A DNA stretch of 64,000 nt from Octopus vulgaris (taxonomy: Eukaryota). The notes under the pieces were generated by a model. That model saw only the letters and a program-made list of their open reading frames with translations, made no database searches and was not told the origin of the DNA. A program made the position numbers and the translations under genes. Position 1 is the first letter of the stretch, and each line of letters starts with the position of its first letter. The stretch covers positions 120,280,001 to 120,344,000 of the forward strand of contig OX597814.1 in assembly GCA_951406725.2 (NCBI GenBank), in the 5' to 3' direction. This document shows, in pieces, positions 476 to 63,778 of the stretch.

Positions 476-3179
476 CTATATTGTTGTGCATGCATGTGGT
501 CAGTGATAACAATACATTTGTTAAAACACGTTTTCATGGCCAGACTTTCTATCTAACAGATAACCCTTCTTAGATTTACAATTACATTTATGCTCATATT
601 AGGTGAAATGTGTGTAGCTGATTGAGAACATAAGGGTTGGAGAAACTGCTTCTAGGATGTCATTAAGGTGTTATGAGTTCAGGTATCACCAAAAATTACT
701 GTGAAGGTCTAATTCAAAAAATATAGTACTAGTCAGATAGTTAGGGCTGTATGAATTGCTCTGCTCACGTCGTTTTAATTCAGTCTGTTAATCTTTTTCT
801 TTTTGAAAATAAAAGATGAGTGCCTAAGTTGGGTATGCAGAAAGCTCCTAAATTGCCCAATGCCGTTGTATATATTTCATTGGCGCCCACGCAACTCCAT
901 AAAGATTTAAAGGCACAAAAATATTTATATTACGCATACATGCATTCATAAGTGGATACACACACACACACATGCATAAACGTTCCTGAAGTTTATCATT
1001 TAAGTATATATGAGCAGGTCTAATATGCAATCATATGCATGAGAATACGTACATGCATAAAACAAAACATACAATTCTGCATATATACATACAAAAATAG
1101 GATATAGGTTAGAAACCGACTATTTCTGTATCGGTAAGAAATCTTGAAATAATACTGAATGAAGACATACATACATACATTCATAAATACATGTTTTGAC
1201 GTAATGGTGAGAATTGAAATGTGTAAATTATTATGCGCTTCCAACTGCTTAGATATTGCCCACATCGTCACATTTTCCTCATCACAGTAATTCTTAAGAT
1301 GGAATGACAAATAATGTCACCATAATGAGAAATCTCTACATCATTCTACTATTGTGATAAACATTTACACAATATGAGACCCACTCTTTGAGTCTATCTC
1401 ATTTTTTTCTAGTGAGTGGCCGAGGCAAAATGACCTGCAACGAATTGAAACCGTTGGTTTTAAAACAGAGCGTCCCTATCCTAGACGGATGCTGTAACAA
1501 CAGCTAGGTGTCCTTCATCCTCAGACATTTGCACACCAAGAAAAGAACCAAATATGTTCCTGTATCCTAACGCTCAGATAGAATGTCATCACATATGCCC
1601 ATTAACTCGTAACAGGGATCCTCACTGGTACTGCTAATCCAGGAAAAAAAGTGGCTAACAGATTGTTCCTTAAAACCCCTAGAAGTCCCGAACTGGAGCT
1701 ACCAGCATGAAGCAGTTTAATGTCATAACCAGGACGATGCACATACATATTTCCATTCATACACGCAAGCACACCAGAATTAACACGGTAGCTCACACGC
1801 GCATGCATGCAATTACATACATATTAATTATAAAAAAGCTAATAGAAATTCTATCAACAAACTGACATGACCTATAAGTATAGCAAATAGAAGGAGTGAG
1901 GTTTTGTTTGGTTTAGACAATTAATCTATCAGAAAATATAATACTGTTATAAACCATACATTATTACAAATTTCAAAACATCGTACATAAACGTATTTAT
2001 ATATTTAGCAGTATTTTGTGTATCTTGTATATTGATGCTCCTCTATCGCATAACGTAGCCTCGATACATCAAAAACATAACATCTATACGTATATAGAAA
2101 AACGAAAGACACAAATGGAATACAAAATAGGCATAAAGAATGTTTCTTCATCGGTTGTTGGCTCTTTCTTTAGTCTGATATTTCGAGCATTTAACAACAA
2201 TATACGCTTTCGATAAAACAGTTGCTTCCACAAAGCAAACCAAATAATATTTGGGATTTTGCAGTGGGTCAAAATAGGTAACACAAGCAGGACAGTCAAA
2301 ACAACCAGGAAGAGTTGCTAAGCTTAAACAAGGTCGTGGTGGCGAACTCGTAAATCAAGCTAGGACAGGAGACAAACAAGAACACGTCTACATTGTTCTA
2401 GCTATAACGGAGAGAAAGAAAGAAAGATTGCCGATGGTCACGTAGGCGCCATGCGAGCAAGGAAGGAGGAGTGAGGGACAGAGGGTGACAGAACAATAGG
2501 ATAGAATAGTGGGAGGAGTTATAAAAACAAAAGAGAGAAAAACGAAAGAGTAAAAAGATAGTATAGAGTGAGTATCATATAGTTAGATAGAGAGACAGAT
2601 ATGTATGTATGTGTGTTTTGTGTGTGAATGTTGTATGTGTGTTTGTGATTAAGCATCTGATCGAAAATGTGTCAAGAACAAGAGATTTTTGTTTTTCGGG
2701 GATAAGGGATTGCTGTCAAGACCTTTCCCAGGTCATCTTAACAGCAGAGGCTTCCATGCCGAATCGATATGGTGGATGTTTACAACCATTAGGATAAGAG
2801 GAAAAGAACTAACTTGTGTGCAAGATAGAAGAAACTGCAAAAAGAGTCTCTTGTTTGTTATGGAGCAAGAAAAGAGCGAGAATGGAAGTGGAAGGCAGGG
2901 GAAGATTTTGAGCAGTGATGAGACCACCTTTGCTGACCCACCAATGGTAAGATGATACGAGTCAGAATCAAAACAACTGGTCATCGTTGAATAATTTTTG
3001 ATGGCATCAATTAATCCTGGTTAAATCTCCGTCCCCTTGATGAATGAAAACGAAACATTTCGTTTTAAGTGTTATTGATAGTATCCATCTTCACAGATGT
3101 GCGTTTGTTTACGCTTGTAATTATCCCCCATCTGCCATGCCTATTGACCACTGTGTTGCTTTGTTTACATCCTCATAAC

Positions 3180-3370
3180 TTAGTAGTGTTATATAAGAAT
3201 CGCTTTGAAAAAATAAATATTAGGGTCGATAGTTCGAGTAAACAGCATTCAAGTTGGATCCTCAGCATAACTTCCAGAGATCCTACAGCCCCTGATCTAG
3301 TCTGTGAAGTTTTTGGCAGTAGATATATGTCTGGCGCAGGCTTAATAAGCCACCATAGATATCATGTAGT
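3180..3370 (+). pseudogene. Possible RTE-type LINE ORF C-terminal remnant
   Basis: Translation LVCEVFGSRYMSGAGLISHHRYH resembles the C-terminal C-x2-C...GLxSHxRxH zinc finger of RTE ORFs. Confidence 0.35.
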
Positions 3371-3515
3371 AATAACTGTTACAGATTAGAACGATTTTCA
3401 TGCCGGGGCCAAACTCACTTGCACTCTCTAGCGGAAAACGGGTATAAATTGCACATGTTTATCTCGGTACTTAAGTAAACTCAGAGAAAAATCATCAGAA
3501 TGATCTGGAATACTC

Positions 3516-3640
3516 TTTTACTCTTTACTCTTTTACTTGTTTCAGTCATTTGACTGCGGCCATGCTGGAGCACCGCCTTTAGTCGAGCAAATCGACCCCG
3601 GGACTTATTCTTTGTAAGCCCAGTACTTATTCTATCGGTC
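3516..3640 (-). mobile_element. 3' half of SINE family A, fused just downstream of the tRNA-Gly
   Basis: Near-identical to the 3' parts of copies at 41924-42312 and 60595-60972 (gaccgatagaataagtact..cttacaaagaataagtcc..ggtcgatttgctcgactaaagg). Ends in a (GAGTAAA)n tail. Confidence 0.88.
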
Positions 3641-3653
3641 AACATTGTCGATG

Positions 3654-3724
3654 TGCATCGGCCGGGAATCGAACCCGGGCCGCCCGCGTGGCAGGCGAGC
3701 ATTCTACCACTGAACCACCGATGC
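3654..3724 (-). tRNA. tRNA-Gly-GCC: tRNA-Gly(GCC), 71 nt, intact cloverleaf sequence
   Basis: Minus strand reads GCATCGGTGGTTCAGTGGTAGAATGCTCGCCTGCCACGCGGGCGGCCCGGGTTCGATTCCCGGCCGATGCA: acceptor stem GCATCGG/CCGATGC, GCC anticodon, GGTTCGATTCC T-arm. No encoded CCA and no immediate oligo-T terminator. Confidence 0.96.
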
Positions 3725-3954
3725 AATACTCAAACAGTCAAAAAAATTCATAAAATATCTCGAACCTACAACAAGTTCTGTAGGTCACTGGCAGGATTCC
3801 AGAGCCATTGTCGTTCTCACAACAGATAATAGTGTGGTACAGTCTATTTAGTCAGTTATGGCTATATACGTTTGAGTCGACAGGTAACGGAAGCCATCAA
3901 CAGTTATTATATATACATACATACATACATACATACATACATACACACAGACAG

Positions 3955-7899: not shown

Positions 7900-8870
7900 A
7901 TTTTCATTTTCTCACAGACCTTTCTCTCAACAACACTCCACATGCAATAGTCCAATGGAATGAGATCAGGGGAATTAAGAGGCCAAATGTTAGGGATTAT
8001 GTGATCATGAACATTTTCAGCCATCCATTACTGTGTTACTAGAAAGATGTGTGGTAGTGCAGTTTCTTCTTTAAACACACGTGGCCTTCCATTGCATACA
8101 CTGTCTATCCAGGGCTTAGCAATTATTTCCAGGACATTATTGTAGGCGGCAGAATTCTGAAACCTTGAGGAAAGAAGTAAGGAGGCATCACATGTCCTTC
8201 ATCGTTGACAACCACTAAAACAGTGACAGTTGCCGGAAATTTTGTATGCATATTACTTAAAACATCAGAAGGGTCTGCATATAACCATCTGTTATTTCTT
8301 CTGTTAACATTTTGATCTTGGTCGAAGTTCTTCTCGTTTAAGAATAAACAAATCAAATCTTCTGCTGTGTCTTTCAGTTTGTTTAAGAGTCTTTTAGATC
8401 TGATGTAGTGATTTTCTTTTACTTTTTATGACAAATTGACCTTTCCTCATCTTATAAGACTTATGTCTTTGTGGACAACATTTCTGATTGTTCCTTCTGA
8501 CAGATGGAAATCTTTTGCAACTGACCCCGTGGACTTTGTGGGATTGTTATCGATGGTCTTTTGAACTTGTTGGATAACTTCAGGTATTATGATTTCAGAG
8601 CGTTTACAATACAGTTTATCCTTTGATACTGGTGATACACTTTCATCGTCAGTCTATCTCCTTACAAATTTTGCAGAAGAAAGATCTGGTGACTTTTAAA
8701 AAGTCGAGATATACTCAACCTTCATAACCGCAATAACAGCATATTTCTTCATTTCTTGAGTAAGCTGAGGGTCTGCAATTATTATTTTCTGAAACAAAGA
8801 TTATACTGCGTTAGGAAAAATGCAGGAATGACCGAAAAATGGTATGTCCTCAAATGCCTTAAGCACTCAG
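7900..8870 (-). mobile_element. Tc1/mariner-superfamily transposon relic, one end truncated
   Basis: Fragments WPLNSPDLIPLDYCMWSVVE and NEKNF..NRRNNRW..HTKFPATVTVLVVV..GHVMPPYFF. Terminal tgtcctcaaatgccttaagcactcag+TA matches the TIR of 62627-63772. Confidence 0.88.
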
Positions 8871-8987
8871 TATAACTGCAATTTGTCAACAAAATAATAC
8901 CTTTACATATTTATGAAGTTTTTATCCAATTGTAGCAAGCATGTTATGAATTTTTAAGTCATATAATTTACACAGGAACATATAGTA

Positions 8988-11394: not shown

Positions 11395-11600
11395 TTTTGG
11401 AACAAGGCCAACAGGTTCAGTTTAGGGCGCTAGTCGATATCATCGACTCCAGCGCTCATCTGATACTTATTTTATTTATCCAGAAAGGATGAAATTCAAA
11501 GTCGACTCCGGCGAAATTTGAACTCAGAATTTAAAGACGGACGAAATGCCGCTAAGCATGTTGTCCGGCGTGCTAACTATTTTGTCAGCTCCCCATCTCC
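11395..11600 (-). mobile_element. tRNA-derived SINE family C (Nin-domain-like)
   Basis: Minus strand has a tRNA-like head with B box GAGTTCAAATT, then gtcgactttgaatttcatcctttc..gataaa..aagta. Homologous to 44685 and 52297. Confidence 0.8.
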
Positions 11601-13376: not shown

Positions 13377-13680
13377 CCTCGGTTACGAGGATGAAGGTCA
13401 CAGCTAATAAAATCAACGGAACAGCTTGCTCGAGAATTTAACGTGCAAGTGGCAGAGCACTTCACAGTCACGTGTATCCTTAACGTAGTTCTCAGGGAGC
13501 TTCAGCGTGACACAGAGCACGACAAGGCTAGTCCTTTGTAATACGGATCATTTTTGCCAGCTTAGTGGACTGGAATCACGTAAAATAAAGTGTCTTGCTG
13601 AAGCACAGAACGCGTCACCTGGATTTGAACTCACAGCCGTACTCTCGTGAGATGGAAGCCCTAACCACAAAGCCACCTGT
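13377..13680 (-). mobile_element. tRNA-derived SINE family B
   Basis: A box GTGGCTTTGTGG, B box GAGTTCAAATCC, central gcaagacactt.attt.acg..ccagtccact.agctg.caaaaatga shared with the 18699 copy; different 3' tail. Confidence 0.8.
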
Positions 13681-13780
13681 CTTCACTAGATAAATATAGA
13701 TATATAAGATATAGACAGATAGATACAGAGATATATATAGAGAGAGATATAGTGAGATGGAGAGAGATAGAGAGGAAGGG

Positions 13781-17804: not shown

Positions 17805-18698
17805 ATAAGTGTGCGTGTGTGGATAGTATCAATATTTATATTGTGGCAAGGGTTTAACTAATTTTAAAATTGTATATCAACCAATATTTTAGAAGAAGTA
17901 ATTTTCGACATAAAAATTATTTCTTTATTATAATTTTTCTTTTTACTCTCGTGTTTTATTTAAAAGAATGTAATTTAAATAAAAAAAAAACAACTACGTC
18001 ATATGGCATACATAGATATTCTAATAATTTAATGTTTTTTCAATGATGCTCTCATAGATATATTTGAATGATTGTACCCGTTGGTACATCACTTTCGTAT
18101 TTGTGTTTTTGTTGAGAAATGCACATTTCTTGTTTTAAATTTTCAGCAATAATTATCTGAAATATCATTTTTTAATAACTTCAGAATATCCAATTATTTC
18201 ATTTGACAAGTATTGTACTATCGATTTTATTGAAATTCTAGTTGAGTACAAAGATACACATACAGAGAAATATTCAATGTTTCACACGACGAACGGACAT
18301 CTAATGTATAAGCGTGGATAAATACAAATCTGCCATGCCAAAGGGCATAAAAATGACTGCATTTTAAAGAAATTTGAAACGTAAATTGTAGGGTTTCTCT
18401 TCCCTTCACACTCTTACTAATAACTTTTTTCTTTAACAACCATGAGTAGGTCAGGCTGTTGTGGATTAAGTTCTGGAAGGAAATCTGTCGTTGAAGTCTA
18501 CATAACCCTTGCGATTTGATGGTTTGTCTGGAGCCCAATCTGTTATAAGTACTTGCGTAAGTCTCCGATATGATTATTCGTCCTTCTCTTCGTTCTGCTT
18601 TACCACAATCCACTAATTATCACGCAGTTATTGATATTCCATTTCTAGCAATATTTAGGAAGATAATTTATAAAAGGTAAGTAAATATTCTTAACAGT

Positions 18699-18960
18699 GG
18701 AGGCGCGTGGCTTAGTGGTTAGGGTGTCAGCATCATGATCGTAATATTGTGGGTTCGATTCCTGGGCCGGGTGACGCGTTGTTTTCTTGAGCAAAACACT
18801 TCATTTCATGTTGCCCCAGTCCGCTCAGCTGCCAAAAATGAGTAACACCACGATGGACTGGCGTCCTGTCCAGCTGCGGAACACATATGCCACTGAAACC
18901 GGAAAACCGGGCCCATGAGCCTGGCTAGGCTTTAAAAAAGGCGCATTTATTTATTTATTT
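18699..18960 (+). mobile_element. Full-length tRNA-derived SINE family B with 14-bp TSD
   Basis: A box GTGGCTTAGTGG, B box GGTTCGATTCC, (ATTT)n tail. TAAATATTCTTAAC repeated at 18682-18695 and 18963-18976. Confidence 0.92.
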
Positions 18961-27389: not shown

Positions 27390-29114
27390 AATCATAAACT
27401 TACATAAACTTAGATATGTTTCGATAAAAGATTGGTCCAGGCAATGTCTAACTTAATAGCACCACTTGATGTGATTATCTAAATCCTCTCTAAGTCAAGT
27501 TTTGTTTATGGACCATTCAGGTAGTGAGTTTTTGTAGGGTGTGTTGTATCCAATTATGGGTGGCTTATCTGTTATTCCTTGAAGGAATCTATCCAGACTC
27601 CGTTTAAACTTGATGGGATCATTTTTCTCTTCGATCTCTTTCGAGACAATGTTAAATAAGGCAGGACCTGTTGAGGAAAAGAAATTATGTTGCAGTGTAC
27701 ATATATGCTGTGATCCTGAATTGGGCAAGTGACATATAGCCAGTGGTCCCAGTCTTGGATGAACCTTGAAGCTAATGTTCAGATCGTTTGGGCAAAGTTG
27801 GCGGTATATTCTTCACATCGTACAAATTAGGTACCGCTCACGGCGGCGCTGGAGAGAGTAGAGTTTCAAGGCTTTAACGCGATCCCAATAATCGAGAGCA
27901 GCCATGGCTTCAATTCGTTTAGTGTTTGCCATCTGGGGTGGTTCAATCCTCGAAATGTTTTGTCTTGTATGGGGAGACCACAGCGGGCAGCAGTATTCGA
28001 GGTGTGGCCGTACAAAGGAGGAGAAAAGTGGTATGATGATACCTTGTTCTCTGGACCGGAAAGTTCTTAAGATCCAGGAACTCATCCTACGAGCTATATC
28101 GACCTTATTGTTGATGTGGGCACTCCAACTGAGATTGTCATCAACAATTACGCCCAGGTCTCTGATATTGTTAGAGGCGGTGAGCTTTTTCCCTGAAGGA
28201 AAAGGGTATGGCTGTTTTAATGTGAACTTTCTTCCAAAATGCATCAGCTCAAATTTTCCCTCTTTCAGTTGCATTTTGTTCCTGTCTGCCCATTGAATCA
28301 CAGCATATATATCAGACTGGAGTTGAGTTCGGTCTGCTTCTTCATTGATGATTTGCTGGAGCTTAGTGTCATCAGCAAATATTTTCAATTTGCAGTAATG
28401 TACGACACTGGAAAGGTCATTTATATAAATTATAAAAAGGAGCGGGCACGAAACAGTCCCCTGGGGGACACCGCTGGTGACTTTTGCTAGACTTGAGTGG
28501 ACTCCATCGACTGCAACATGTTGTGTTCTATTCACCAGGAAATACTTAATCCAGTGTAGAAGTTTTCCACGGATTCCAACATATGCCAATTTTGAGAGTA
28601 GGATATTATGGTCAACCCTGTCGAACGCTTTACTGAAGTCAAGATAGATGACACCAGATTTCGAACCTGTTCCCAAGGCTTTAAGTATATCTTCAATGTG
28701 GTGTAAGAGTTGTGTTAGACAGCTTCTTCCACAGCGAAAGCCATGCTGATTTGCATTTAGAAGTTTGTGGGTCTCCATGAAGTCAGCTATCCTTGATCTT
28801 GACACTTTTTCAAACACTTTAATGATGTGGGAGGTGAGTGAGATTGGGCGATAGTTGACTGCGAGGGATCTGTTTCTCTGTTTGAAAACTGGGATGACAG
28901 ACTGGGAGAGGAGCTGTTGCGGTATATAACCTGAGTCTAACAAATTTCTCCAGAGGTTGGTCAGAGGGACTTCAAGTTGGTGTCTACATTCCTTCAGAAG
29001 ACTAGCGGGGAATATATAAGGGTCTACAGCAGAATAGTATTTGATCTCATTTATTGCTGCTATGATGTCTGAAGCAGTGAAGGTTATGTCTGAGATTTTA
29101 TGTTGGACAATCCC
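27390..29114 (-). mobile_element. 5'-truncated CR1-group LINE: reverse transcriptase ORF2 fragment plus 3' end
   Basis: 437-aa ORF 27813-29126 with NYRPISLTS, QHGFR, YLDFSKAFDRVDH, SGVPQG, IFADD, IRDLGV, RPHLEYC, SLQRRRER. Continues after a frameshift (NFFSSTGPALFN..FKRSLDRFL). Short tandem tail (aagtttatg) near 27390-27410. Confidence 0.93.
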
Positions 29115-29221
29115 AGCAAAAGTCACCAGCGGTGTCCCCCAGGGGACTGTCTTGGGCCCGCTCCTCTTTATAATTTATATAAACTACCTTTCTAGTGTCG
29201 TACATTACTGCAAAGTGAAAA

Positions 29222-29224
<3 letters not shown>
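29115..29224 (+). repeat. Inverted duplicate of LINE segment 28379-28488
   Basis: 110 bp with 8 mismatches by manual count; encodes AKVTSGVPQGTVLGPLLFIIYIN. Confidence 0.9.
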
Positions 29225-29271
<47 letters not shown>

Positions 29272-29999: not shown

Positions 30000-30540
30000 T
30001 CTAAACATATTCCAAACCATTTTAAGTTATGACAACACCATGAGTTAGCCAACATGCTACATTAGAAAGTGGGAACTAGTGACATGCGAGATGTAGTATA
30101 AGCCCAAACCGCAGAGATTTCCCGATCCAAACAGATCAGACACTCGAGCATAACAAGCCCGAAATTATTGTGACGGACAAGGTCAACCACATGTGCCATA
30201 TGACTGATGTTGCGTGCCTCCTTTCATCCACGAATAAGTGAAAAACTAAATATTTACAATCCTCTTAAGTACGAATTTGCCCACTAACAAAAATGAAGAT
30301 AGTGAAGAGACTGCCAGTTATTATTATGACCTTGGAGACAGTATTAGAAAGTATGAAGAGGAATATAAAATAAATCAGAATGGATTGCCTAGTAGATATA
30401 TTATAAGAGGTAACAACTCATCACTTCATCTAGATAGCTGAAAAGAGCAGGTAGCACGGGGCCTTAGGCTGCAGGTAGCAAACCTGCTTCCTTTACAATA
30501 CTTCAGGAATTCTAACAAAATCTAAGTCAAAGGAGTAAAA
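30000..30540 (+). mobile_element. 3' end of an R4/Dong-like RLE LINE (restriction-like endonuclease remnant), followed by (TAA/CAA)n
   Basis: Translation DFPIQTDQTLEHNKPEIIVTDKVNHMCHMTDVAC resembles the R4-clade PD-(D/E)xK endonuclease motif. Confidence 0.75.
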
Positions 30541-30789
30541 TTAATAATAATAATAATGATAATAATAATAACAAAACAACAACAATAACAACAACAACAA
30601 CAACAATAATAATGATAATAACAACAACAGCAACAATAACAACAACAACAACAGCAACAATAATAATAATAATGATAATAATAATAATAATAATAACAAA
30701 AACAACAATAATAACAACAACAACAACGACAATAATAATAATAATAACAACAACAACAACAGCAACAACAACAACAACAATAACAATAC

Positions 30790-30834
<45 letters not shown>

Positions 30835-30852
30835 TAATAATAATAATAATAA
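30541..30852. repeat. Compound (AAT/AAC)n microsatellite
   Basis: Direct reading. Confidence 0.95.
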
Positions 30853-32080
30853 AGCAGAGTATCAAGGTAGAGGATGTAAGATCTGCTCTCAGGAAGTCAA
30901 GCAAATGGAAGTCTCCAGGAAAGGACAACATTCCTAAGTTCTGGTTGAATGCCTTCCCAGAGAGCCATGAATTGCTAACAAAAATTTACAACAATGTTTT
31001 GCAACAATCTAGTGTGATTCCCTCTTGGTATAACATTCCTACTTCCAAAAACAATGAAGAAACAAATGAACCAAAACATAATTGACCCATATAAAACGCT
31101 AACATCTTTTTTGACTGAATATACCTATAGTCAATTAATAGAAAATGATATATTCCCTAATGAGCCAAAAGGATGTAAACGTGGGTCCTATGGTTGTAAA
31201 TTTCAGTTACACATCAATAAGATGATCTTCGAAAATAGTCACAAATAACACAAAAACTTGTCGATAACACGGATAGATTAAAAAAAGGTTTTGATAGTCT
31301 ACCACATAGCTGGATTAAGAAATGTCTGGAAATGTATAAAATAGCACCTACTCAGGGAAACTTTTTGTTGGTAAGATCAAGGAGTACCATACTGACTATG
31401 AACAGTAACAATGAATATATTAATGCTGGAGATGTAAGAATTTCGTGTGGCATTTTCCAGGGTGACTTTCTATAACGAATCCTCCTTTGCCTACCCTTAA
31501 TACATCTCTCGAAATTGCTCAATGATGTAATTACGGTTATACAATATTTGATGAAAATATAAATCCTCTCATTTACATGGATGATTTAAAGAACTTTGCA
31601 AAAAATGACCAACAACAACAAGGCTTACTAGCGATTGTTAAACAATTCAGTGATGACATCAGAATGCAATTTGACCTCGATAAATGTGCAAAGCTACCTT
31701 TATCAAAGGAAAAACTCACAAACATCTAACGTTAACCTTGACTAGCAGACTGTCACGAAGGAGCTAGAACCAGCGGAGAGCTAAAATACCTAGGGGTATT
31801 TGAAGGGGACGGAATCAAACATTCAGTGATGAGGGAAAGGAACGGAAGAGAATGTTATCGCAGGGTAAGAACAATACTCAAGACAGAGCTGAATGCAAGA
31901 AACAGGGTTGAAGTTATCAATACTTTAACCATACCAGTCGTGACTTACAGTTTCAATATCATTAAGTGGTCAATTATTGAAATATGTAATCTTGAGAGAA
32001 AAATACGAATATTGTTGTCAATGCATAGAATGCCCCACCCTACCAAGAAAATAGAGAGGTCGTGGACTTTTATCACTGGA
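30853..32080 (+). mobile_element. Decayed R4/Dong-like LINE RT fragment
   Basis: WKSPGKDNIPKFWL, KGCKRGSYGCKFQLHINKMI, GFDSLPHSW, CGIFQGD, LIYMDDLK, KYLGV, RRVRTILKTELNARNRVEVINTLTIPVVTYSF. Many frameshifts. Confidence 0.88.
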
Positions 32081-32465
32081 ATTAATTTGACAAATTAAAT
32101 TTAGAAAATTCAATTCTATATTTAAACGGTGAGGAATTATGTACGTTATTTACATTGTTTACATTATTTACATTCCACTAGATGAGGACAAACACCCATC
32201 GAATGTAAATAATGTAAATAAAGTAAATAAGGTTAAATTTAGATGTTGAAGTGAATCTAACAGTTTTTGTGGGTTTTTAAATGGCTTATAATCACTTTCC
32301 ACGCTGCAATATTATTATTATTATTATTATTATTAATAATAATAAGAAGAACTGCTTAATTATTATTATTATTATTATTAATAATAATAACAAGAACTGC
32401 TTAATTAATAATATTGTATTTAGATGTAGCCTTATGACTAATCAACGAACAATCGTTCACAATAG

Positions 32466-33946: not shown

Positions 33947-34041
33947 AATATTAGGGAATAAATCCAAATTTACAGGGAAAAATCAAATTTAGGATTGAAT
34001 CCAATTTTATAGTAAAATATAATATAATATTAATTAGAGAC

Positions 34042-34309
34042 AAAACCACTATTATGCAAATCAAACAAAGAAAGACTTAATCCAATACATAAAAAATTTT
34101 ATATAAATTAAATATATAAATATATTTAGGAGAGTGTGTGGACGTGTCTGTGTGTATCTACATGTGTATGTACATGTGAAGGTATGTTTATATACTGATA
34201 TGTGTCTATTCAAGTTGTATACATGACTGTTACTTTGTTGAAGGTTGTATACACACCCATATATATAAAATTCTTTGTTTGATTTGCATAATAGTGGTTT
34301 TGTCTCTAA

Positions 34310-34341
<32 letters not shown>

Positions 34342-34703
34342 CAGTAAGGTTATGTGTGAATATATGTATCTAAGACGTTGTATCCATTCACCGTTAGACA
34401 GTGGTGAGAGGGACAAACGCGCGCACACACAGACATATATATATATATATGTGTGTGTGTGTCTATTTTACCTATATACATGTATATGGGTGTGTATACA
34501 ACCTTCAACAAAGTAACAGTCATGTATTCAACTTGAATAGACACATATCAGTATATAAACATACCTTCACATGTACATACACATGTAGATACACACAGAC
34601 ACGTCCACACACTCTCCTAAATATATTTATATATTAATTTATATAAAAATTTTTATGTATTGGATTAAGTCTTTCTTTGTTTGATTTGCATAATAGTGGT
34701 TTT
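34042..34703. repeat. Near-perfect 220-bp inverted duplication (34042-34263 vs 34483-34703)
   Basis: About 1 mismatch and 1 indel by eye. A third partial copy of the end segment lies at 34271-34320. Confidence 0.92.
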
Positions 34704-37569: not shown

Positions 37570-38500
37570 ACTTTCCTTATCGCATAACTTGTTATCAGCT
37601 GGGTATGCTATAACTATGATCCTGCATAGTTTGTTTTCTTTCTAAATTAAGACTAGATGTACCTTCCTGTTCTCTATCTCATGGTCACATTAAATCATAA
37701 AATCTCACAGGATCTTTGCATTATCATTTTCGATAATGCTTTCGGGTTTATGTTCGTACCAATTTTTACTGTTTCAAGTCCAATGGACAAGCCTTGCTAT
37801 ATTTTCGTAGCGTCCCTTATATTCCTTCTGGGCTAGTGGCGTCCATTGAGTGGTAATATGACATACGATTTCACCACTAGTCCACCAATCCTGCACTTAT
37901 TACTTTGTGATGTGTTGTTTATTCTGTATTTTATGTGATTTGTTTTTAGTGCTTGCTTTTGGGCAGCACAGATTACAGCTTCTCTTCCCCGGTTTAAATC
38001 ACTTTTAGTCATCCACAGTCATTTTTTTCTCTGTCAGCCTTATCTTTAACATCCCTATAAAATTGTTCATGCATTCTTTTCTTTTACACACCTATTTTCA
38101 GTTTCATTCCTTCTCAATTGCTTGCAGAGTGCGTTATCTTTGCAATCTTTCATCCTACAAAAGCCTGACCTTCTTAATACTAATAATAGCGGTTCTGTAG
38201 CATTTTTACATGCTATGTTATGCTGCTTTCCTGTGCTCTAATGCGGTATTTCATCCAATAAGTTCTCTTTCTTCTCCTTTTCTTGGTACATACAGTCCGT
38301 CTGTGTCACCTTTTGGGTGGAGTGTCCCGTATCTAGTTAGCAACTTCCTTGTCTTTCTGTCTAAGTTGTTTAGGTCGTCTACTCTCCATGCGATTACCCC
38401 TGCTCCATACCTAAGGAGTGAAACCGCCCTGGTGTTGATAGCTTCAGTCTTATTCTGATCGTTTAATTTCGACTTAAGGATCAGGCTTGCATGGGATTTC
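37570..38500 (-). mobile_element. Decayed R4/Dong-like LINE (RT thumb, CCHC knuckle, start of RLE region)
   Basis: ILKSKLNDQNKTEAINTRAVSLLRYGAGVIAW..LDRKTRKLL..LHPK..LYVPRK; KCRI..EIVCHIT..LAQKEYKGRY. Trinucleotide repeats on both sides. Confidence 0.85.
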
Positions 38501-38509
38501 CGTTTGCCT

Positions 38510-38538
38510 ATCAATATTATTATCATTTTCATTATCCC

Positions 38539-38586
<48 letters not shown>

Positions 38587-38731
38587 TATCATTATTATTA
38601 TCATTATTACTATTATTATTATTGTTAGTGTTGTTGTTGTTGTTGTTGTTGTTGATTTTATTGTTGTTAGCAACAGCAGGATCAGCAACAACAGCAACAT
38701 TAGTAGTAGTGGCAGCAGCAGCAGCAGCATC

Positions 38732-38796
<65 letters not shown>

Positions 38797-38825
38797 AAGT
38801 AGTCAATGAAATTATTATAATATTA
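38510..38825. repeat. Compound (ATC/ATT/GTT/GCA/TAG)n microsatellite
   Basis: Direct reading. Confidence 0.95.
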
Positions 38826-39329
38826 TTATACTTATTCATTCTTCCGATAATCGTCACACCTTCGTTTTTTAGAATACATTTCCTTATTGCGTCCTCTCTT
38901 CTGCTTTTCTAACTTTTAGAGAATCAAATAATAGACTCTCTCTCAGAAAAAAACGGCATTTAATGCTGGTTTTCATCGCATCTATGAAAGCATGAAAATG
39001 GGGTTTATTTCGTTTACGATTTGCAAATCACGGATACCTATCTCCATGCTTCATATTTACTGCATGGAAAGCAAAATTTAAAGAAGGTTTCTGTTTTCAT
39101 ATATTTGTTTTATCCCTTTCAATAGTTAACGTGATCAATGAGCGCTTTGATTCCTATTATCTATAAAGTTTCTTTTGATTCATCGATTTTCCTGAATATT
39201 ATAAAAATCTTCCTTGATATGTAGCAATTCCAGTCTTTGTTGAAAAATGATACTATTCCAAATCGTTGCATATTCAGATTGATAGGCATATTCCTTAAAA
39301 ACACACTCATGTATGAGTATCTAGATATA

Positions 39330-41923: not shown

Positions 41924-42312
41924 GGCGCAGGAGTGGCCGTGTAGTATGTAGCTTGCTAACCAACCACATCATACCGGGTTCAGTCTCACTGCGAGGCACC
42001 TTGGTGAAGTGTCTTCTATTATAACCTCGGGCCGACCAAATCCTTGATAGTGGATTTGGTTGACAGAAAATGAAAGAAGGCCGTCGTATATATGTATATG
42101 TGTGTATATGTGTGTGTATTTGTGTGTCTTTGTTTGCCCCCTCATCCCCCCAAACATCAATTGACAACCGTGTGATTAGGTCCCCGTAACTTAGCGGTTC
42201 AGCAAAATAGACCTATAGAATAAGTACTACGCTTACAAAGAATAATTCCTGGGGTCGATTTCCTTGTATAAAGGCGGTGCTTCATCATGACCGCAGTCCA
42301 AAACCAAGAAAC
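41924..42312 (+). mobile_element. Near full-length SINE family A
   Basis: ggcgcaggagtggc head, gggttcagtc B-box-like motif, internal (TG) tract, 3' ccccgtaacttagcggttc..aataagtact..ggtcgatt. Confidence 0.9.
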
Positions 42313-44684
42313 AGTGCTGCCAAGTAAACCCTCTTCTACTGTCTATGGTAGAGTTGTATATGTAAAACACTCTGCGGGTAAGTCCGAAACTGACACTTGA
42401 TATACTTACGTACACAATCACATAAATCTGTGTATGTAAACATATGCACATACATATTTAACTGAGTGTGTGTGTTTGTGTGTGTGTTTGTGTGAATGTT
42501 TGTGTGAGTGTGTGTGCTTGTGTGCTTGTGTGCATATGTATGCATATAGATACAGGCACAGGCTATAATATTATTTCGTAGATGTGTGTTTGTACATGCG
42601 CGTATAATGAAAGTCGGTACTATAATAGACACGTCAATAGCTTGTTAATGAGTTGCAAAGTTAAAGTGACTTTTGATTGCCACCGATACTTTCCCTCTTT
42701 ATGAAAACCGTCACATTATCAGTCCTCACAGCTGAATTCAATCCTGAATCAACTCTCTGGCATTTTGTACAAACCCGTGTTTCTTTTGGCCATTTACAGA
42801 AACGTAGCATTTATTATATGTTTGTATTATAATTTATTATTAACCTTCTTTTCTTCATGCATCATTCACTACCTAACACGATCAGGCCTAGAAACATAAA
42901 CTCAGTTACAGATTCAGGATTTGAAAGGGTTATTGTTAACTATGGTGTTCCTAATTCTTTCTTCTTTCAGTTTTCAAAGCTTAATGTGATATTCTTCACA
43001 TGCAAGGACATATTGAGTGTATTGTTCACCATGAAGCAACATCGACCGGCTTTATTTTCCAACTTTGCACATGAATATTAACTTTTTTTTTCAGATCAAA
43101 TGTAGGAAGGTTTTGTATTTGATATTCCGTTAGTGCAAAATTTAATTTTCCAGATTATAATGCTCTACAGACACTCTGGCATTCTATTTCGCTTCCTATA
43201 TTGCTTCAGAACATTGTGATGATTGGAATTGCACAAAACTTTTCCGTGAATTCCGAATTCTATTTGCAATTTCTTCACCTGTATTTGCATTTTGCTTTAG
43301 CATACTGCTAATATATTTCAAGGAAAGCATGGTGGTGTATCAATGTTCTTCTGTATAACTTTACTTTTGAAATGCACACGAAATTTTCCAGACAAAATCT
43401 AATAAAGAATAACAGGTTTATCAAAATTATTTTGAAGACTAACACGTTTGCATACATGGAACCGTATACACATAAATTTGAATATGATATCATTTCATTC
43501 GACGTTCATAAATTAAATTATTATCGCATCCGAAGAAATTGTTATATTATTATTATTTTAATCACATGCTTCCAAGAACTCTCCGAAAACCGGTAATATT
43601 ATTCGTCTACTCCTTATCAATTTTGATGAAACTTGAGACCTGAGTATAACTCATATCTCGAAAGCTCATGGCATACTCAGATTGTTGAAAAAATAAACAA
43701 TGGGGCCTCTGGAAGGGATCCTTATATATATCTAATATATTTTATTTTAAAAACCAAGATAAATACCCATTCGCCCCTGGAAGGGAACTTTATATATGGC
43801 CAATGGAAATAACTAATTCATTTTCCAAAATTATTTAGTAAAAAGGAAATTGATTACACTTATTTCTTAGTATTTGAACTGTTAGAGTTATTTTCGCAAC
43901 TTGTCCAGTACAAACCTTAAACAAGTGAATAGTAGTTTGCTAAACACTCGATCCACTTATTTAGATTAGTGACTTATTCCCGAATATACCAACAGTAGCG
44001 CCCCTGAGGGTAATATTCTCTGGGAACGCATAAAAATTCCATTTCAGAGTGATTTACTTTGAATTGTTATTATCTCATATCCGATTAGCGTGTTATTAGG
44101 TAACATGTTTCACGATTTTAGTATACAAAGCTTATTAGTAACATGTGAACATATTAAAGCCCTTTTCGGGGCTATTTTATTTGAATGCTTACTATCGAGT
44201 AACTAAGCTCACGTTAATAAATAACTGACTGCACAATTTGAGTATTCATAACTTATTGGGTAATTCACAAAAATCTGATCCTGTGTAAAGCAGTTCGATA
44301 TTCTTTGTAAATACATAAAAACCGTTTTAAGGGCTACCTACTTTGTATTATTGTTATTGGATTAGCGAAAGAATTATTAAAACGGAACCAATGGATAAGC
44401 CCCGCTTTTCCAGGAATTTACGGGTACGTCAATTAGTGTTTCATACTTCCTTCTCAATCTTTGAATTTTACATTAGTCTGTTACACAAGGAAAATAGCAC
44501 GGCCAATAAACTTTCAATATACACTTATGCTTTTAAGTTCCTTTTCAGATGTAAATATCTTTTATGTAATTATTATTATAATTTAATCAAAACTTGCTAC
44601 CAATCAATACGTAGCTATTAATCCTTATGTCGAAATTTACATCGACATTTTGAAAGTTTAATTCAAGTTTCTACATTGGTTTCA

Positions 44685-44880: not shown

Positions 44881-45900
44881 AATGCGATGTAGCATATATT
44901 TCCTTGTCCCTCTTTTTGTGCATAACCTCCAAATCAAATCATTTTATGTAGGCACATTGTGTCGACCATGAAATTTTTACAAATATTTAGTTGATAAAAT
45001 TTAATGATTTAAACACAAAAATTAATTAATATAACATGATAGCAAATATAGCTGATAACAAAGTTATATTTACAAAATACGTTATGTTACTATACATTTT
45101 TTATTGTAAAGCATATCTATAACTACAGTAAAATTTATCCTTTTTTCTTCTTCCTCCTCCTTTTCTACTTAGGTTAAAGTGTCCTACAGCGAAATTTTAG
45201 TACTATCGGCTAGTATTGAATTTTTTTTTCACTTTCATGAAGCGTCAAATGAAAGTTTATCAAAAAGAAGTTTATCAAGTTATGAAGTCTTCCAACCCCA
45301 CTCCCCCGTTTGAATATCGAGTGGTGCAGGTGAAAGGAGGGGGAAAAGGTAACTCATGTGAGCACCTGAACTCACTGCACAATAATGTAAATATGTTGCA
45401 AAGAATGAAAGCTTGGGAAATTCGTCCTAACAATGCTTTATTCTGTAGTGATGAGATTTTATCATGACAGGATGACTGATTTACTTTCGGTTTAACTGTT
45501 TTGAAATAAGCCCGTGTTTTTGCAAGCTAGTTTTCGATTATATATCTTCTTTAGAAGTACGAGGTAGCAGGGTTTCCCCCTTTATATTTCTACTTACTTT
45601 TTTTTTTAAAGTAATGTAGTTATATTTGTGGTTTTACTAATAGATATTAAATGTAAGATTGGAAGCGAAATATGATGTTCCCAGGTTTATATCAAGACAC
45701 AGTTTTAGGATTTCCACAGATTTTACTTTTCTGTTTATAAGTTATAATCAGTATTCTTCTCCTCAAGAATTTATAAGCTGCAAACATTAGAATTGTTAAC
45801 GGCGAATGAAAGGATTTTTAGTGGCAAACTGATGAGTTGTTTTCAATTTCATATTTTTATTTATCATTCAATTTATTTTCTTGCTTCCCACTACATTATA

Positions 45901-47850
45901 ATGAGCAAAAAAAATGTTGCACCAGCCAAAAATCCGAAAGACTGGCTTAAGATGCCAGCGTTTACTAAGTGGTTGTGTGAAGTACCTAGTGACCAACCTA
46001 GAGCATATTACAGATATTGTAGATGTAATATGTTGGCAAAATACTATCTTTTAGTAAGTCACTGTGAAGCAAAGAAACATAAGGCATCAACACCACAACA
46101 AAGGATTCCTCTTACCAATTTTATGAAAATCAAAAATCATAAGACGTCTATGCTTGAAGCAAATACAGCAACGTTTATTTGTTGCCACGTATCATTTAAT
46201 AGCTGCGATCACTTAATACAGTTATGTAAGAATTATATGTCTGATAGTGATATTATGTTCAAAGTGAAGTTGCATCGTACTAAATATGCAAATATTGTGA
46301 GAAATATTGTAGCTCCATATTTTGAAGGAGATTTGATTTCTGATATAGGAGATAGAAAATTTAGCCTGTTATTAGATGAATCCAATGATATATTTATAAG
46401 CAGGTTGTTAGGAATTTTTCTCATATATTACAGTGACACTCACAAAAAAGCGGTACATACATATCTCAGTATGGTATCTTTAGAAACATGTGATGCAGTT
46501 GTCATTGTAGATGCCTTAAAAATTGAATTAGCGAAAAAGAAATTAGATATAAAAAATTTACTGACTATAAAAACCGACAATGCTAGAGTAATAATAGGAG
46601 ACAACAATGGTGTTTTCTAGAAATTAAAATACGTTACATCAGTATTCCAATTTAGATGTGTATGTCATTCTTTACAATTGGCAGTATCCAACACTTGTGC
46701 TGAATGCCTGCCAATAAAATTAGAATTTTTAGTATCCGAAACCTATAAATGGTTCTCTTATTCTTCAACAAGAAGAAATGCCTGCAAACAACTTTACTTT
46801 GCTATGATAAAGAACCTTTGAAGATTGTGAATTCTTGTACAACTAGGTGGCTGTCAACAGAACCAGCTGTAAATAGAATTTTAAGCCAATGGTTTGAATT
46901 GCTAGCTCACTTCCAAACTACAACTACAAAAGAAAAATGCTTTACAGCACAAGCATTACATGAAATGTTTTGTGATTCTAGGAATGAAATTTATATTTTA
47001 TTTTTGCATCCAATTTTAAAGCATGTTCAGGAATTGAATAAACTGTCGACAAATCAAAATTAATTGAAGATATTTCAAATCTGTTGCAGATATGATAGTG
47101 TTGCCAACATGTAGAATGGATCCTCTTCATCCCGATGCTTCTATTGAAAAGGTATTTGATCCTAAACCAAATTTAGGCTACAGGTTCGAGAGGAAGAGTA
47201 GAAATGATTATCAACAAGACTGTAACAGCCACCGAAGAAAATAATATTCGCAAAAGAGCACAACAATTTTTACTCTGCCTTTATAAAGAGCTCAAGCACC
47301 GTTTGCAAGAAAATATTAATATACTGAGGAATGTCTCATGTTTTTCAGTAGAGAAGATTTTGCAACATTCCAAAGAGCCAAGTTTACCTGCCTTAGAAGC
47401 AATGTATTGAAATGAAGAAAAAATTACTTCAATTGAAATATAGTTTAATAGCATTCATTTAGTTAAATGGACAAATACGTCTAATGCTGACATATTCTGG
47501 CTGGAGGTCTCAGAATATAAAGATGCTACTGGAGGAAATCTTTTTAGAGATGTTGCAGATTTTGCTATTAATCTATTGACATTGCCAAACTGAAATACAG
47601 AAGTGGAACGGTCGTTCAGTTGTATGGGAGTAATCAAACCAACATTGGAAGCCAAAATGCCTATTCCTATGCTTAGATCAATATTCTCTATAAGATATAG
47701 CCTGTAAAACTATTGCAAATGTTGCAACAAATTCGATATTCCAAAACACATATTTAACAAGATATGGACCTTGAATGTATACAGAATTCAAGACATAGGT
47801 ATTGCAGCTGAAAGTGATCAAATCAGTGAAATTCAAGAAATTATTTCTCG
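45901..47850 (+). pseudogene. Decayed hAT-superfamily transposase (ZNF862-like type)
   Basis: N-terminal Zn-finger remnant YCRC..LVSHCEAKKH, FSLLLDESND, TDNA, CVCHSLQLA (CxxH), TRWLS, and C-terminal dimerisation motif LP.*NTEVERSFSCM. Stops and frameshifts. Possible TIR remnants cagggtttcc (45568) and gttggcaaaattg (47985-47997). Confidence 0.9.
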
Positions 47851-48901: not shown

Positions 48902-49976
48902 GTAACTGTTTCTGTATATATTTTTGTCATGCCACTTGCCTTGATTAATTATCTGAAGTGAACTATATAAGACTTTGTCCCCGGCAAAGATCCCCAGTAC
49001 AAACACCGAAAAATGTTCATATCATTATATACACTTTGCGTTTTTGTAACATATAAGTTTTCCTTGTATGAAGAGAAACGAACGATAGCTTCCTGCGGTT
49101 TGAGCAATACAGAATTCGGCACCAAATAATGGATTCTAATTGGATTCTAATACCTAAAATAAGTACGAGTTTGGACCACTGCATACACGAGTGCCCCAAG
49201 AAAAACTTACCAACGCTGGATTTATGATTATCTCACCATTGAACCTTCTATGTTTAAAGACCAATGTATTGAGTAATAATGAAACTCCCGAGGTACAGCT
49301 TTACCTCATGCTCCAGTTGAGCCCTAACTGACCTAGAAATGTAAATATCGATATCCAGCTGCAATAATGCGTTTGCGACTGATAATCCTTACATTATTAA
49401 AATTGCTTTTAAATCGTAATTTAATGTGTACGTGTGTGTATGTATATACAGAAAAACACCTTCGATTTCAAGGACATTAATGATCATCTAGCATGATCAA
49501 TATATACAAAATATACATATTGGATTCTTCAGGAATTCCCCTAAATATATAAATCAGATTTAATGAACTCATTTAAGAGATACCTAAGAGGTGTTTACAA
49601 AACTTGCTTTGCTTGCGATATATATATTAGAAGAAATGGAGTACTAAGAAATCAGGATGATTTTATATTTACATGTATTAGTATGTTACATGTTTTTATA
49701 TATCATATGTCATATAATAGCACTTTCGTCCACTCTAGTGGAGTTTTCAAATTGAACTAACTTTTGCAGGAACTTTGACTCTTTTCATAGTATTATTGAG
49801 TGTGTGGAGAGATATAAGATAGTACAAGAAGGTGAGGAATGGGGAGAAAGTGAGAGAGAGCAGGTGTGTGTGTGTTTGTATCTGAAAGACGTGTATATAT
49901 CTATCTATTTATCTATCTATATGTATATATATATATATATATATACTCAAAATAAGCAACAAGAATGACTCCGGTA

Positions 49977-50066
49977 ATTTGGTACGATCGTTTCGTACTA
50001 CATCATTTTATTAAATGTTGTAAGTATTACAACAGTTTTAAAATGCTGAGTACTCATCAGCCAAAT
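49977..50066 (-). ncRNA. Type I hammerhead ribozyme with long stem II insertion, intact core
   Basis: Minus strand: ATTTGG-CTGATGA-GTACT-[~49 nt]-AGTAC-GAAA-C(gatc)G-TA-CCAAAT. Palindromic stem III ACGATCGT, GUA cleavage triplet. Confidence 0.9.
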
Positions 50067-50701
50067 ATAGAGGTTTTCCATTAATACAAAAATTTTCATA
50101 TCAAGAGGCAATACTATCTCACTTCCATTTCTTAATATATAATTAGTCTAAGATATCTTTACAAAATATATTTAACCAAATAGGAAAGAATATACCATAC
50201 TGGTTTTAGTTTATCACACATAAATGATTAAAAAACTTCATTACAAACTTAGAATTAAATTCTCCTTTTTTATAGTGTTCTCCAATATTGTTGCAATGAT
50301 ATGCATATGGTTTGTAAGGTCTCTGCATTCTCTGGGAATATTATTGTGACCTTTTGACATTGACCTAGTTCTCCTAACGCTGAATCTGTTCATCAAATAT
50401 TAGTAATTGGCATTTAGTTGTGACAATGGTGTCTCCCACACAAATTCCTTATATGGAGCTATGACATCTTCATTATCCCATTTCTATAATTAGAAAATCT
50501 TTATTGCCTCCTCTCACTTGTTCTTCATTCTCAGAACCTTAAAGTAGTTTGGAACAACTGAATCTTAGTCAGTCAGTTAATGAGCTCCACTACCTCAAAT
50601 GTTCTTAAAATTTAAATCCACATCTTTGTTTATGTATCTACCTTCTCTATAATATTGCCACTTGATATGAAAATGTTTGTATTAATGGAAAACCTCTATA
50701 A

Positions 50702-50787
50702 TTGGCTGATTAGTACTCAGTATTTTAAAACTATTTTAACACTTACAACGTTTAATAAAATGATGTAGTACGAAACGATCGTACCAA
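50702..50787 (+). ncRNA. Second hammerhead copy, core mutated (CTGATTA, G8->U)
   Basis: TTGG-CTGATTA-GTACT...AGTAC-GAAA-CGATCG-TA-CCAA. Confidence 0.8.
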
Positions 50788-50917
50788 ATCACTGGAGTCA
50801 TTCTTGTTGCTTATTTTGATTATAATTACCCCACGGATATTTATGGATAACACCATACAGAATTCTGGTGCATCTAAATTAAATAACATATTCATTTGAA
50901 TCTAAATTTTTGCTGAA

Positions 50918-52296: not shown

Positions 52297-52298
<2 letters not shown>

Positions 52299-52483
52299 GC
52301 TAGCACGCCGGACATAGTGCTTTGCTTAGCGGTATTTCGTATGTCTTTACGCTCAGAGTTCAAATTCCACCGAGGTCGACTTTGCATTTCATCCTTTCGG
52401 GTTCGATAAATTAAGTAGCATTTGCGTATTGGGTCGATCTAATCAATTGGCCTCCTTCCCCAAAGTTTCGGGCCTTGTGCCTA
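52297..52483 (+). mobile_element. SINE family C copy
   Basis: gagttcaaattccaccgaggtcgactttgcatttcatcctttcgggttcgataaattaagta..ggccttgtgcc. Confidence 0.82.
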
Positions 52484-57689: not shown

Positions 57690-59500
57690 ATAAATTAGGG
57701 GTAAACCACTTTTTACCCCCGGCCTTATATGACGCTCGATTGCGAAATTGCCACGCAATAACCTTAACTCATTATGTCTTTTGATGTGGTTTTTAAACCA
57801 GCCGTTGTATTGAGAAGACACCCACATACATTGCATATCTGATTTCAACAATTAGGAGCTGTATTTACGTTTTGAAGTTTGTGCATCTTAAAGTGTCTCT
57901 TCAGGTCTCCGTAAGATTTGCAGACCTTATTAGCTTACACGGGATTGAAAGGTGTGCACATATATATATGCAGAATGGTTGGTGGAGGTTCTTTCTTCGT
58001 GGATCCGTACTTCAGACAGAACAGCTTTGCTTATTAAAAGTTGTTTGGTATATCCCCACACCGCCTTCTTTCCACCAGCCTGTTCATCTGTTACAATGAT
58101 GTTCGACTCACAATTGTCCTGGAGGAATTGGTTGAGGCACCTTGTGTATAGTTTGTATATAATGTTTCGGCAAGCAAGGGTATGCAGTTTCCTGTCATTT
58201 CGGTGATTTAATTTTTTGCAACAAGATTTGTCCTTCCTCTAACACACCAATTTGGTATATCAGTCTGACCTTCCATAGTCCTTTTGAATATACATATCAA
58301 CTGATTTCTGAAAAATGTCAGCTTCTTGTACGAATATCCAACTATTAGGTCGCTTCGAGGTGCCTTCCCATTCTGCAGTTTGCCTAATACTATAACGAAG
58401 GTTTCTGACTCAATTTTGTATGTTTTAATGTTAGTGTTGGTACAGTATTGTCTCTCAATTTTATTTTACCATGATGCATTTAGTTTGAAATCCCTCTTTC
58501 CGTTCCAGATTTTTTACCAGAACGATTGTAGATCTTCTTGGGAGGGAGCTTTCTTAATGATAATGTTTTCCTTCCTCATCTCTCTTTGTAATACTTGTGG
58601 GTTGGAAGCAAACTTGCAATTGTTACTGGCTCGTTCAAAACTTCGCATGCGACAGTGCAATTTCTCGCTCATCGTCCTAAGTTCATGTTTTAAAGTGATA
58701 AGCTTTCCATCAAAAGCTCGGTGTGAAGATTGCCATAAGGTTTCATTAATTTTTGTTTAAGGTAGAGTTGGTAAGGTGTCACCACATTTTTCTCCTTACA
58801 TTTAATTGCTGTAGTTAACCATCCGATATGGCGGCGCACGTTGTTGATGTTTTCTTGAAGTATTGTTTTCCATCTATTTTGTCTCCATTATGTAATTTCG
58901 TTACTTTCTTCACTGTAGATTTTTCCTAAGTGTTCTTTAAGAGTAATAGCGACTGTGTATATAAGAGTATTTATATAACTTCACATGATTCCATGTGCCC
59001 TCTAGTAAGAGCGTTGTTAACTTAAAACATTAGATCGGTCGGTTTTTTTCTCAATTTTGTTGGGAGACTAGCAAAATTTGTTGCGAATTGTAATTTTAAA
59101 ATGTTTTGAGTTGGATGCATTCCATAGATTTTGCTACTGTGTCAGCTAACTTTGGAGACTCACTTGAATTTAGAGATGTTTAGTTTACATTATATTCTAG
59201 GCTACTTTTGGCAGCATTTGGCCCATTCTCAGTGTTTGGAAGGATCGAGGTTCAGTTGATTTGATTTTTTTTTTATAAAAGATGTTTGTTGTCGGAGCTA
59301 TTTCGCCGTGAAGGTATTTAAGTTGGTTTGAGATTCGTGCCAGTATTGTTTTAACCGCTTCATGTATCTGACTGAAGGGTCATCTCGGGCTTTTTGATAG
59401 CACCGAAGTAAATCTTGGTTTAGTCGTTCAGTCTAAGTGAAATGAGAAGTGTACGTACGTCTTCTTAAATAACTTACTGGTGAAGTTGTTCTGTTTTCAT
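57690..59500 (-). mobile_element. Heavily decayed R4-like RLE LINE (pre-RT and RT region)
   Basis: Manual translation of about 57990-58370: GKAPRSDLIVGYSYKKL..IPNWCVRGRTNLVAKN..LYKLYTRCLNQFL..EQAGGKKAVWGYTKQLLISKAV; IRPGVK near 57715. The 5' boundary is uncertain. Confidence 0.7.
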
Positions 59501-60589: not shown

Positions 60590-60594
60590 TACTA

Positions 60595-60970
60595 TTTTAC
60601 TTGTTTCAATAATTTGACTGTAGCCATGCTGGAGCACGGCCTTTAGTCGAGCAAATCGACCCGAGGACTTATTCTTTGTAAGCCTAGTACTTATTCTATC
60701 GGTCTCTTTTGCCGAACCGCTAAGTTACGGGGACGTAAACACATCATTATCTGTTGTCAAGCGATGTTGGGGATGGGACAAACACAGACACACAAACATA
60801 CACTCACACACATACATATGTATATATACATATATATGACGGGGTTCTTTCAGTTTCCGTCTACAAAATCACTCACAAGGCTTCAGTCCGGCCGAGGCTA
60901 TAGTAGAAGACACTTGCCGAAGGTGCCACGCAGTTGGTAAGCAGTTACTTACCACACAACCACTACAACG

Positions 60971-60972
<2 letters not shown>
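60595..60972 (-). mobile_element. Near full-length SINE family A (head partly deleted)
   Basis: Homologous to 41924-42312 and 3516-3640. Confidence 0.9.
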
Positions 60973-61022
<50 letters not shown>

Positions 61023-63772: not shown

Positions 63773-63778
63773 TATATA

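Follow-up and report, generated by a model that had tools for sequence, protein, structure and literature searches.

A complete tRNA-Gly joined to the 3' end of a SINE in the Octopus vulgaris genome: a probable product of one retroposition event

Did the tRNA-Gly and the SINE fragment that lie end to end at positions 3509-3731 arrive at this site together, as a retroposed chimera, or did a truncated SINE land in the trailer of a tRNA gene that was already resident there? A sequence-only reading of the locus had offered both histories, and the two make different demands on the short direct repeat that brackets the unit, on the linker between its parts and on the T runs around it. All positions given here refer to the window, i.e. 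the whole 64-kb stretch of Octopus vulgaris DNA that was analyzed, which is AT-rich and holds plenty of microsatellites and mobile-element remains.

Anatomy of the tRNA-SINE locus and its surroundings

The order of the parts can be read directly from the DNA (Table 1). On the minus strand, 3509-3731 consists of a 7-bp repeat, tRNA-Gly(GCC), a 13-nt linker, the 3' end of a SINE with its short-repeat tail, and the identical 7 bp once more. The coordinates which the sequence-only reading had given were all recovered when the sequence was read again, and GAGTATT does bracket the whole unit as claimed (3731-3725 and 3515-3509, minus strand). The SINE part had been rightly recognized as the 3' end of family A; its length, put at approximately 125 nt, was measured as 130 nt.

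Table 1. Features of the tRNA-SINE locus and the two reference copies of SINE family A, with positions in the 64-kb window.
Feature	Positions	Strand	Remarks
T7 run	3740-3746	-	Positions -15 to -9 relative to the 5' direct repeat; resembles, post hoc, one half (thymine stretch) of the RTE target signature
5' copy of the 7-bp direct repeat GAGTATT, likely target site duplication	3725-3731	-	Directly adjoins tRNA +1
Intact tRNA-Gly(GCC), 71 nt	3654-3724	-	A and B boxes intact; without CCA
Linker, 13 nt, TT at end	3641-3653	-	Not significantly SINE-like; likely 3' trailer of the source tRNA gene
SINE family A 3' part, 130 nt	3511-3640	-	Core also present in another SINE family, a pair of small 3' hairpins, GAGTAAA(A) tail units
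3' copy of the direct repeat GAGTATT	3509-3515	-	First 5 bases are the last tail unit
T5, predicted Pol III terminator	3487-3491	-	First T run of at least 4; read-through RNA ~238 nt counted from tRNA +1
Near full-length family A SINE, reference	60590-60973	-	Microsatellite in the middle, tRNA-like head of its own, same 3' part
Second full-length family A SINE, reference, more diverged	41925-42316	+	Own tRNA-like head

The tRNA-Gly(GCC) was called by ARAGORN at 3724-3654, with A as discriminator and as the sole tRNA in the window, and the same interval matched Rfam RF00005 with 66.7 bits over model positions 1-71, i.e. the entire model. All 21 stem pairs are formed, 19 of them Watson-Crick and two G-U, and the description of a complete tRNA-Gly(GCC) is thereby borne out. 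We take the sequence to be that of the common invertebrate tRNA-Gly(GCC). Of the features expected from a functional tRNA gene, the intact cloverleaf and the A and B boxes are present, and a close terminator of T4 or longer is lacking. The first such run lies 162 nt past the discriminator, just where it had been placed before, and is preceded only by a T3 at 3591. A close terminator is not strictly required: in human tRNA genes it is remote in approximately 12% and within 15 bp in 50-60% (PMC3141230).

Two other copies align with the SINE part (3640-3511): the one at 60704-60590 with 92% identity over 115 nt, and the one at 42210-42301 with 86% over 92 nt. Both of these are full-length members of family A of approximately 390 nt, each with a different tRNA-like head of its own and a microsatellite middle, and it follows that the tRNA-Gly head is a replacement rather than native to the family. 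Two changes in 92 aligned columns are private to the SINE part, compared with four and 11 in the other two copies, and out of its six CpGs only three are kept in each of the others. It looks young, which is a rough sign from three copies and gives no date. Family A is presumably an abundant octopus SINE, and its central domain may be that of the Deu/Nin-domain superfamily, for which no consensus turned up in the supplementary files searched. Octopus tRNA-derived SINEs were reportedly described by Ohshima and Okada in 1994; family A is likewise tRNA-headed and could be OK, OR1, OR2 or another.

Further SINEs were found in the window. A second family, at 52297-52450 (plus strand) and 11400-11590 (minus strand), has a central core in common with family A. 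It is at the start of this common core that the SINE part at the locus is truncated. A third tRNA-headed repeat, with recognizable A and B boxes, is present in two copies of approximately 71% identity at 18696-18841 and 13548-13687. All four head-bearing copies of family A (29736, 41925, 60973 and 63782) start right after TA repeats, long in three cases and short in one, and for this reason the frequency of duplications cannot be gauged from the remaining copies of family A. These starts suggest that the family has a liking for TA tracts; the tRNA-SINE site itself contains no such tract. Module exchange is described as common in mollusc SINEs (PMC4758252), and an annotation of Octopus vulgaris includes thousands of recently active SINE insertions as well as active RTE elements and a U-L1 class (PMC13282606).

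Remains of other mobile elements are spread over the window. One is an open reverse transcriptase (RT) frame of 453 aa with the Pfam domain RVT_1 on the minus strand (27813-29174), whose best match is an Argonauta hians protein at 56% identity and whose middle recurs in inverted orientation (29115-29227), a pattern seen in 5'-inverted LINE insertions. Broken RT-like frames occur at 30516-32098, 38201-38908 and 57930-58760, and long (TAA)n or other triplet arrays adjoin or interrupt two of these; they seem to resemble the microsatellite-targeting Dong/R4 elements, though the four short frames compared with Pfam had no match. A Mariner-like transposase remnant in two copies (8104-8874 and 63014-63776, 75%) and a hAT-like one (45748-47063) were labeled by eye and have no Pfam match. 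A MITE-like structure is found at 49942-50824, with 176-bp inverted repeats (93%) around approximately 530 bp. Lastly, 34017-34703 consists of nested near-perfect inverted repeats of ordinary-looking sequence with a TA run between them (34042-34266 and 34480-34703, 225 bp inverted, 98%; 34017-34072 and 34271-34327, 57 bp, 98%), which has the look of either a fold-back rearrangement of recent date or a fold in the assembly.

The flanking repeat and the number of insertions

The likelihood of finding such a repeat by chance was estimated by scanning both strands of the window: each position in turn served as a pseudo tRNA start, and the sequence upstream of it was matched to the actual end of the tail, so that the tail overlap was allowed for. 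Matches of at least 7 nt were found at 109 out of 127,920 positions (0.085%) with no slack, and at 449 out of 127,920 (0.35%) with 5 nt of slack; these figures are somewhat flattering, since the locus was chosen for showing the repeat. Five of the seven bases can equally well be assigned to the last tail unit, and the duplicated part proper may be anything from 2 to 7 nt. The sequence-only reading had warned that, with the repeat overlapping the tail motif, chance was possible. The overlap is indeed there, and a chance origin is unlikely even so, at the rate of the controls.

Around the SINE alone, a duplication of at most 2 nt (TT) was found among eight left ends tested. The locus thereby has the make-up of a chimeric retrocopy: a small RNA sequence runs into a retroposon that has lost its 5' portion and kept its 3' tail intact, and a duplication of 7 nt, five of which overlap the tail, surrounds the whole unit and not the retroposon by itself. 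Furthermore, the T7 run is situated approximately 10 nt upstream of the 5' repeat, and the window background at positions -13 to -8 is 11.6% for T3 and 0.7% for T5. RTE-clade elements have a thymine stretch approximately 10 nt upstream of their duplications (PMC13295347). The T7 run fits this half of their target signature, and the other half, TA at the cut, is absent (T|G). Spotted post hoc, the run provides only mild support for the repeat as a target site duplication.

Taken jointly, the readings in which tRNA and SINE inserted as one unit are very probable. Out of the two histories originally offered, the retroposed chimera is favored, as the repeat is unlikely by chance, no duplication of more than 2 nt surrounds the SINE alone and a T7 run stands upstream of the 5' repeat. 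The other, which we regard as unlikely, would have a SINE, truncated at its 5' end, split the T4 terminator of a working resident tRNA-Gly gene down the middle; the insertion would have duplicated TT at most or nothing, and the 7-bp repeat would be a product of chance. It is in keeping with the undamaged tRNA, and the T runs speak for it too: taking out the SINE without a duplication rejoins the TT of the linker with the TT past the tail into a T4, as in a resident gene, and this T4 would be found 11 nt after the discriminator, which is the usual place of a terminator. There is also a T5 19 nt beyond the tail. In the window background, TT follows 10.6% of random sites and a T4 is found within 20 nt in 16.8%, and a coincidence of this sort is thus far cheaper than that of the 7 bp. 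The chimera, moreover, predicts both TT pairs anyway, one from the oligo-U end and the other from the copy of the upstream repeat. What the resident gene requires in addition is a coincidence of 0.09-0.35% upstream and an insertion without duplication, and the T7 run upstream is left unexplained by it.

The templates of the joined unit

The linker is the part that bears on which RNAs were joined. Compared with the SINE bases that it replaces, it has six in-register matches out of 13 (p 0.08), and its best local alignment to the SINE is no better than chance (p 0.56). Elsewhere in the window nothing matches it over 10 nt or more, and an 8-nt match 88 nt upstream of the tRNA is within chance. 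A derivation from the SINE was consequently rejected as not significant. Another candidate, a fold-back product, was also rejected, as the hairpin formed by linker and junction has 5 bp and merely -2.0 kcal/mol. Given its TT end, which starts at a typical terminator distance from the discriminator (11 nt), and the lack of significant likeness to the SINE, the linker is likely to be the trailer of the source tRNA gene, and the final TT would be the U residues left by Pol III termination. A tRNA intermediate that starts at +1 and retains its trailer is usual in eukaryotic tRNA maturation. The locus resembles a retrocopy of such a pre-tRNA also in that no CCA follows the discriminator, which is a direct observation; a match to the trailer of a source gene would be expected as well.

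From these features of the sequence we infer that, probably, one retroposition event fused SINE RNA to a 5'-matured pre-tRNA with its trailer still on. In such an event, an endonuclease would cut a site whose GAGTA pairs with the last tail unit, which would make the duplication overlap the tail. A LINE reverse transcriptase would prime on the SINE tail at this target site, matching it by 5 nt, copy 130 nt, and then pass to the 3' end of the pre-tRNA-Gly, whose leader was gone and whose trailer was kept. The two could be joined by template switching or by a prior ligation of both RNAs, with the same product either way. Template switching is mildly preferred, since the RtcB ligation route, as shown for U6 in PMC6789731, needs a 2',3'-cyclic phosphate, in which U6 ends. 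Copying would continue to tRNA +1, and repair would presumably duplicate the target.

A mature tRNA as the second template of one insertion event, with the linker as filler made of a damaged CCA and templated or untemplated repair bases, seems distinctly improbable to us. The linker does begin with CA, it has the in-register resemblance to the SINE just upstream of the truncation point, and together with the junction it can make the 5-bp hairpin mentioned above; neither p value reaches significance, however, the hairpin is weak and CCA is absent.

Alternatively, the unit may not have been fused at this site, but be the daughter of a chimeric master elsewhere. This master might be a small SINE family with swapped heads, or a tRNA gene whose trailer bears a SINE and whose read-through transcript is retroposed. 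That such a family can arise is illustrated by PittSINE (PMC5729268). A daughter copy is expected to look just like the locus, with a duplication around the whole unit, a start at +1 and an intact tail. We nevertheless hold this descent to be quite doubtful, as only one copy of the tRNA-linker-SINE unit is present in the 64-kb window, an intact cloverleaf is likely to be processed off the transcript, and no true second junction was found in a metagenome collection, which is a weak test given that the SINE itself was absent from it where tried. The junction pattern had one match in the metagenome contigs, with neither tRNA nor SINE in its flanks, and this was taken as chance. SINE motifs gave no matches in viral and prokaryote collections in any of four scans. 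SINEBase defines a family by a tRNA identity of 60% or more across 60 nt or more, a length below 1 kb and at least 100 interspersed copies per genome (PMC3531059); the unit has the tRNA identity and the length, and with one copy in 64 kb it is not filed as a SINE family. The proposal of a new SINE being born finds no support here beyond the structure, no second copy having been found.

An assembly error or DNA-level recombination joining two repeats is very improbable, for although both parts are repeats and the junction is known from the assembly alone, a mis-join would not be expected to create a 13-nt linker that is unique, nor a repeat at either outer end. Among 24 sequencing runs, eight, with four organism labels, contained a share of 0.39-0.83 of the 121 words sampled from 2700-3905 and none contained all of them, these shares being silent on the insert; 12 runs with small word shares (0.05-0.19) were left out of use. 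For a protein-level search for an empty site, stop-free codons proved too scarce in the flanks next to the junctions.

Coming back to the fused pre-tRNA and SINE, the question remains what the product would do at its new site. RNase Z cleaves at an intact tRNA as an established step of tRNA processing. The expectation that Pol III would read through the SINE tail is right as a prediction, up to 3487 (approximately 238 nt), but it overlooked the likely cleavage of the head by RNase Z. If transcribed, the locus would be read through to the T5 at 3491, and the likely cut would release a normal tRNA-Gly from a SINE RNA of approximately 165 nt that lacks a head. The role of an additional tRNA gene, or of a passenger that stays silent, is predicted to be likelier for it than that of master of a new family. 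The folding of the 238-nt read-through RNA has a z of -2.8, with an alternative structure that is more stable than the enforced cloverleaf by 9.6 kcal/mol, and the acceptor-stem probability is 0.21 in this RNA vs 0.98 in the 84-nt pre-tRNA. As a sign of escape from processing this was not accepted, the cloverleaf being missed also for the tRNA alone.

There is a slim chance that the locus represents step zero of a SINE head swap, i.e. that it is transcribed or has a few sister copies while its head is still a working tRNA-Gly with trailer. If this were true, the split by RNase Z would produce a usable tRNA together with a headless SINE RNA that is still mobile, and daughters would come in two marked forms, whole or beginning at the 13-nt linker. 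One could then test directly if the spread of a new SINE requires a prior loss of tRNA processing.

Relation to known chimeras of Pol III RNAs

Most likely, the locus works like the U6-SINE chimeras and the proposed founder of PittSINE, and is of a kind already known. U6 chimeras are described with L1, L2 and RTE LINEs and with SINEs, and U6-SINE chimeras are known in platypus and lizard, with Mon-1 and AnolisSINE2 as the partners; the duplications of platypus U6-L2 chimeras are 1-9 bp, and as at our locus they are short where the element ends in a simple repeat (PMC4476161). U6-SINE and U6-LINE chimeras also share with it the Pol III RNA in sense, the 5'-truncated 3' end of a retroposon and the one duplication around both (PMC4476161, PMC6789731). 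Unlike U6, the head is here a tRNA with internal promoter boxes and a likely unprocessed trailer. Head addition by template switch is a general model (PMC5786205, PMC4824008), and the origin proposed for PittSINE is a switch from SINE RNA to tRNA, resulting in a chimera flanked by a duplication. This proposed founding structure matches the locus, whereas PittSINE itself is a family with several insertions and we know here of a single copy with an undamaged tRNA head (PMC5729268).

Other tRNA retrocopies are more remote. Human tRNA/LINE-1 chimeras, with 21 loci, likewise combine tRNA and retroposon in one event and are bounded by a duplication, but most contain antisense tRNA halves, as produced by twin priming, and not a full-length sense tRNA with a SINE as partner (PMC13174262). 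Unprocessed tRNAs can be retroposed by LINE enzymes, with priming via complementarity to the target; the resulting tailless or pre-tRNA retropseudogenes have an unprocessed tRNA as template in common with the locus, and differ in being 3'-truncated and tRNA-primed, in contrast to a whole tRNA and apparent priming by a SINE tail (PMC5322556). What would set the octopod locus apart from the known chimeras, judging by its sequence, is a full-length, undamaged tRNA in sense with a likely trailer. In the part of the cephalopod literature that was covered, we found no report of a tRNA-SINE chimera of this kind, and looking for its sequence motifs in papers yielded nothing of relevance.

The fusion of a Pol III RNA to the 3' end of an existing retroposon is regarded as the start of new SINE families, and the founder is usually inferred from old families. 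A single locus is an example and not a discovery, and a genome-wide count of the junction would be worth more. Young-looking as it is, with its head undamaged and a trailer that is likely, the locus would point to a nuclear processing intermediate as the template, and not to the mature tRNA. It would extend the chimeras of Pol III RNAs to an octopod and to a SINE with a short-repeat tail, and would show one way in which a tRNA gene relocates with its promoter intact.
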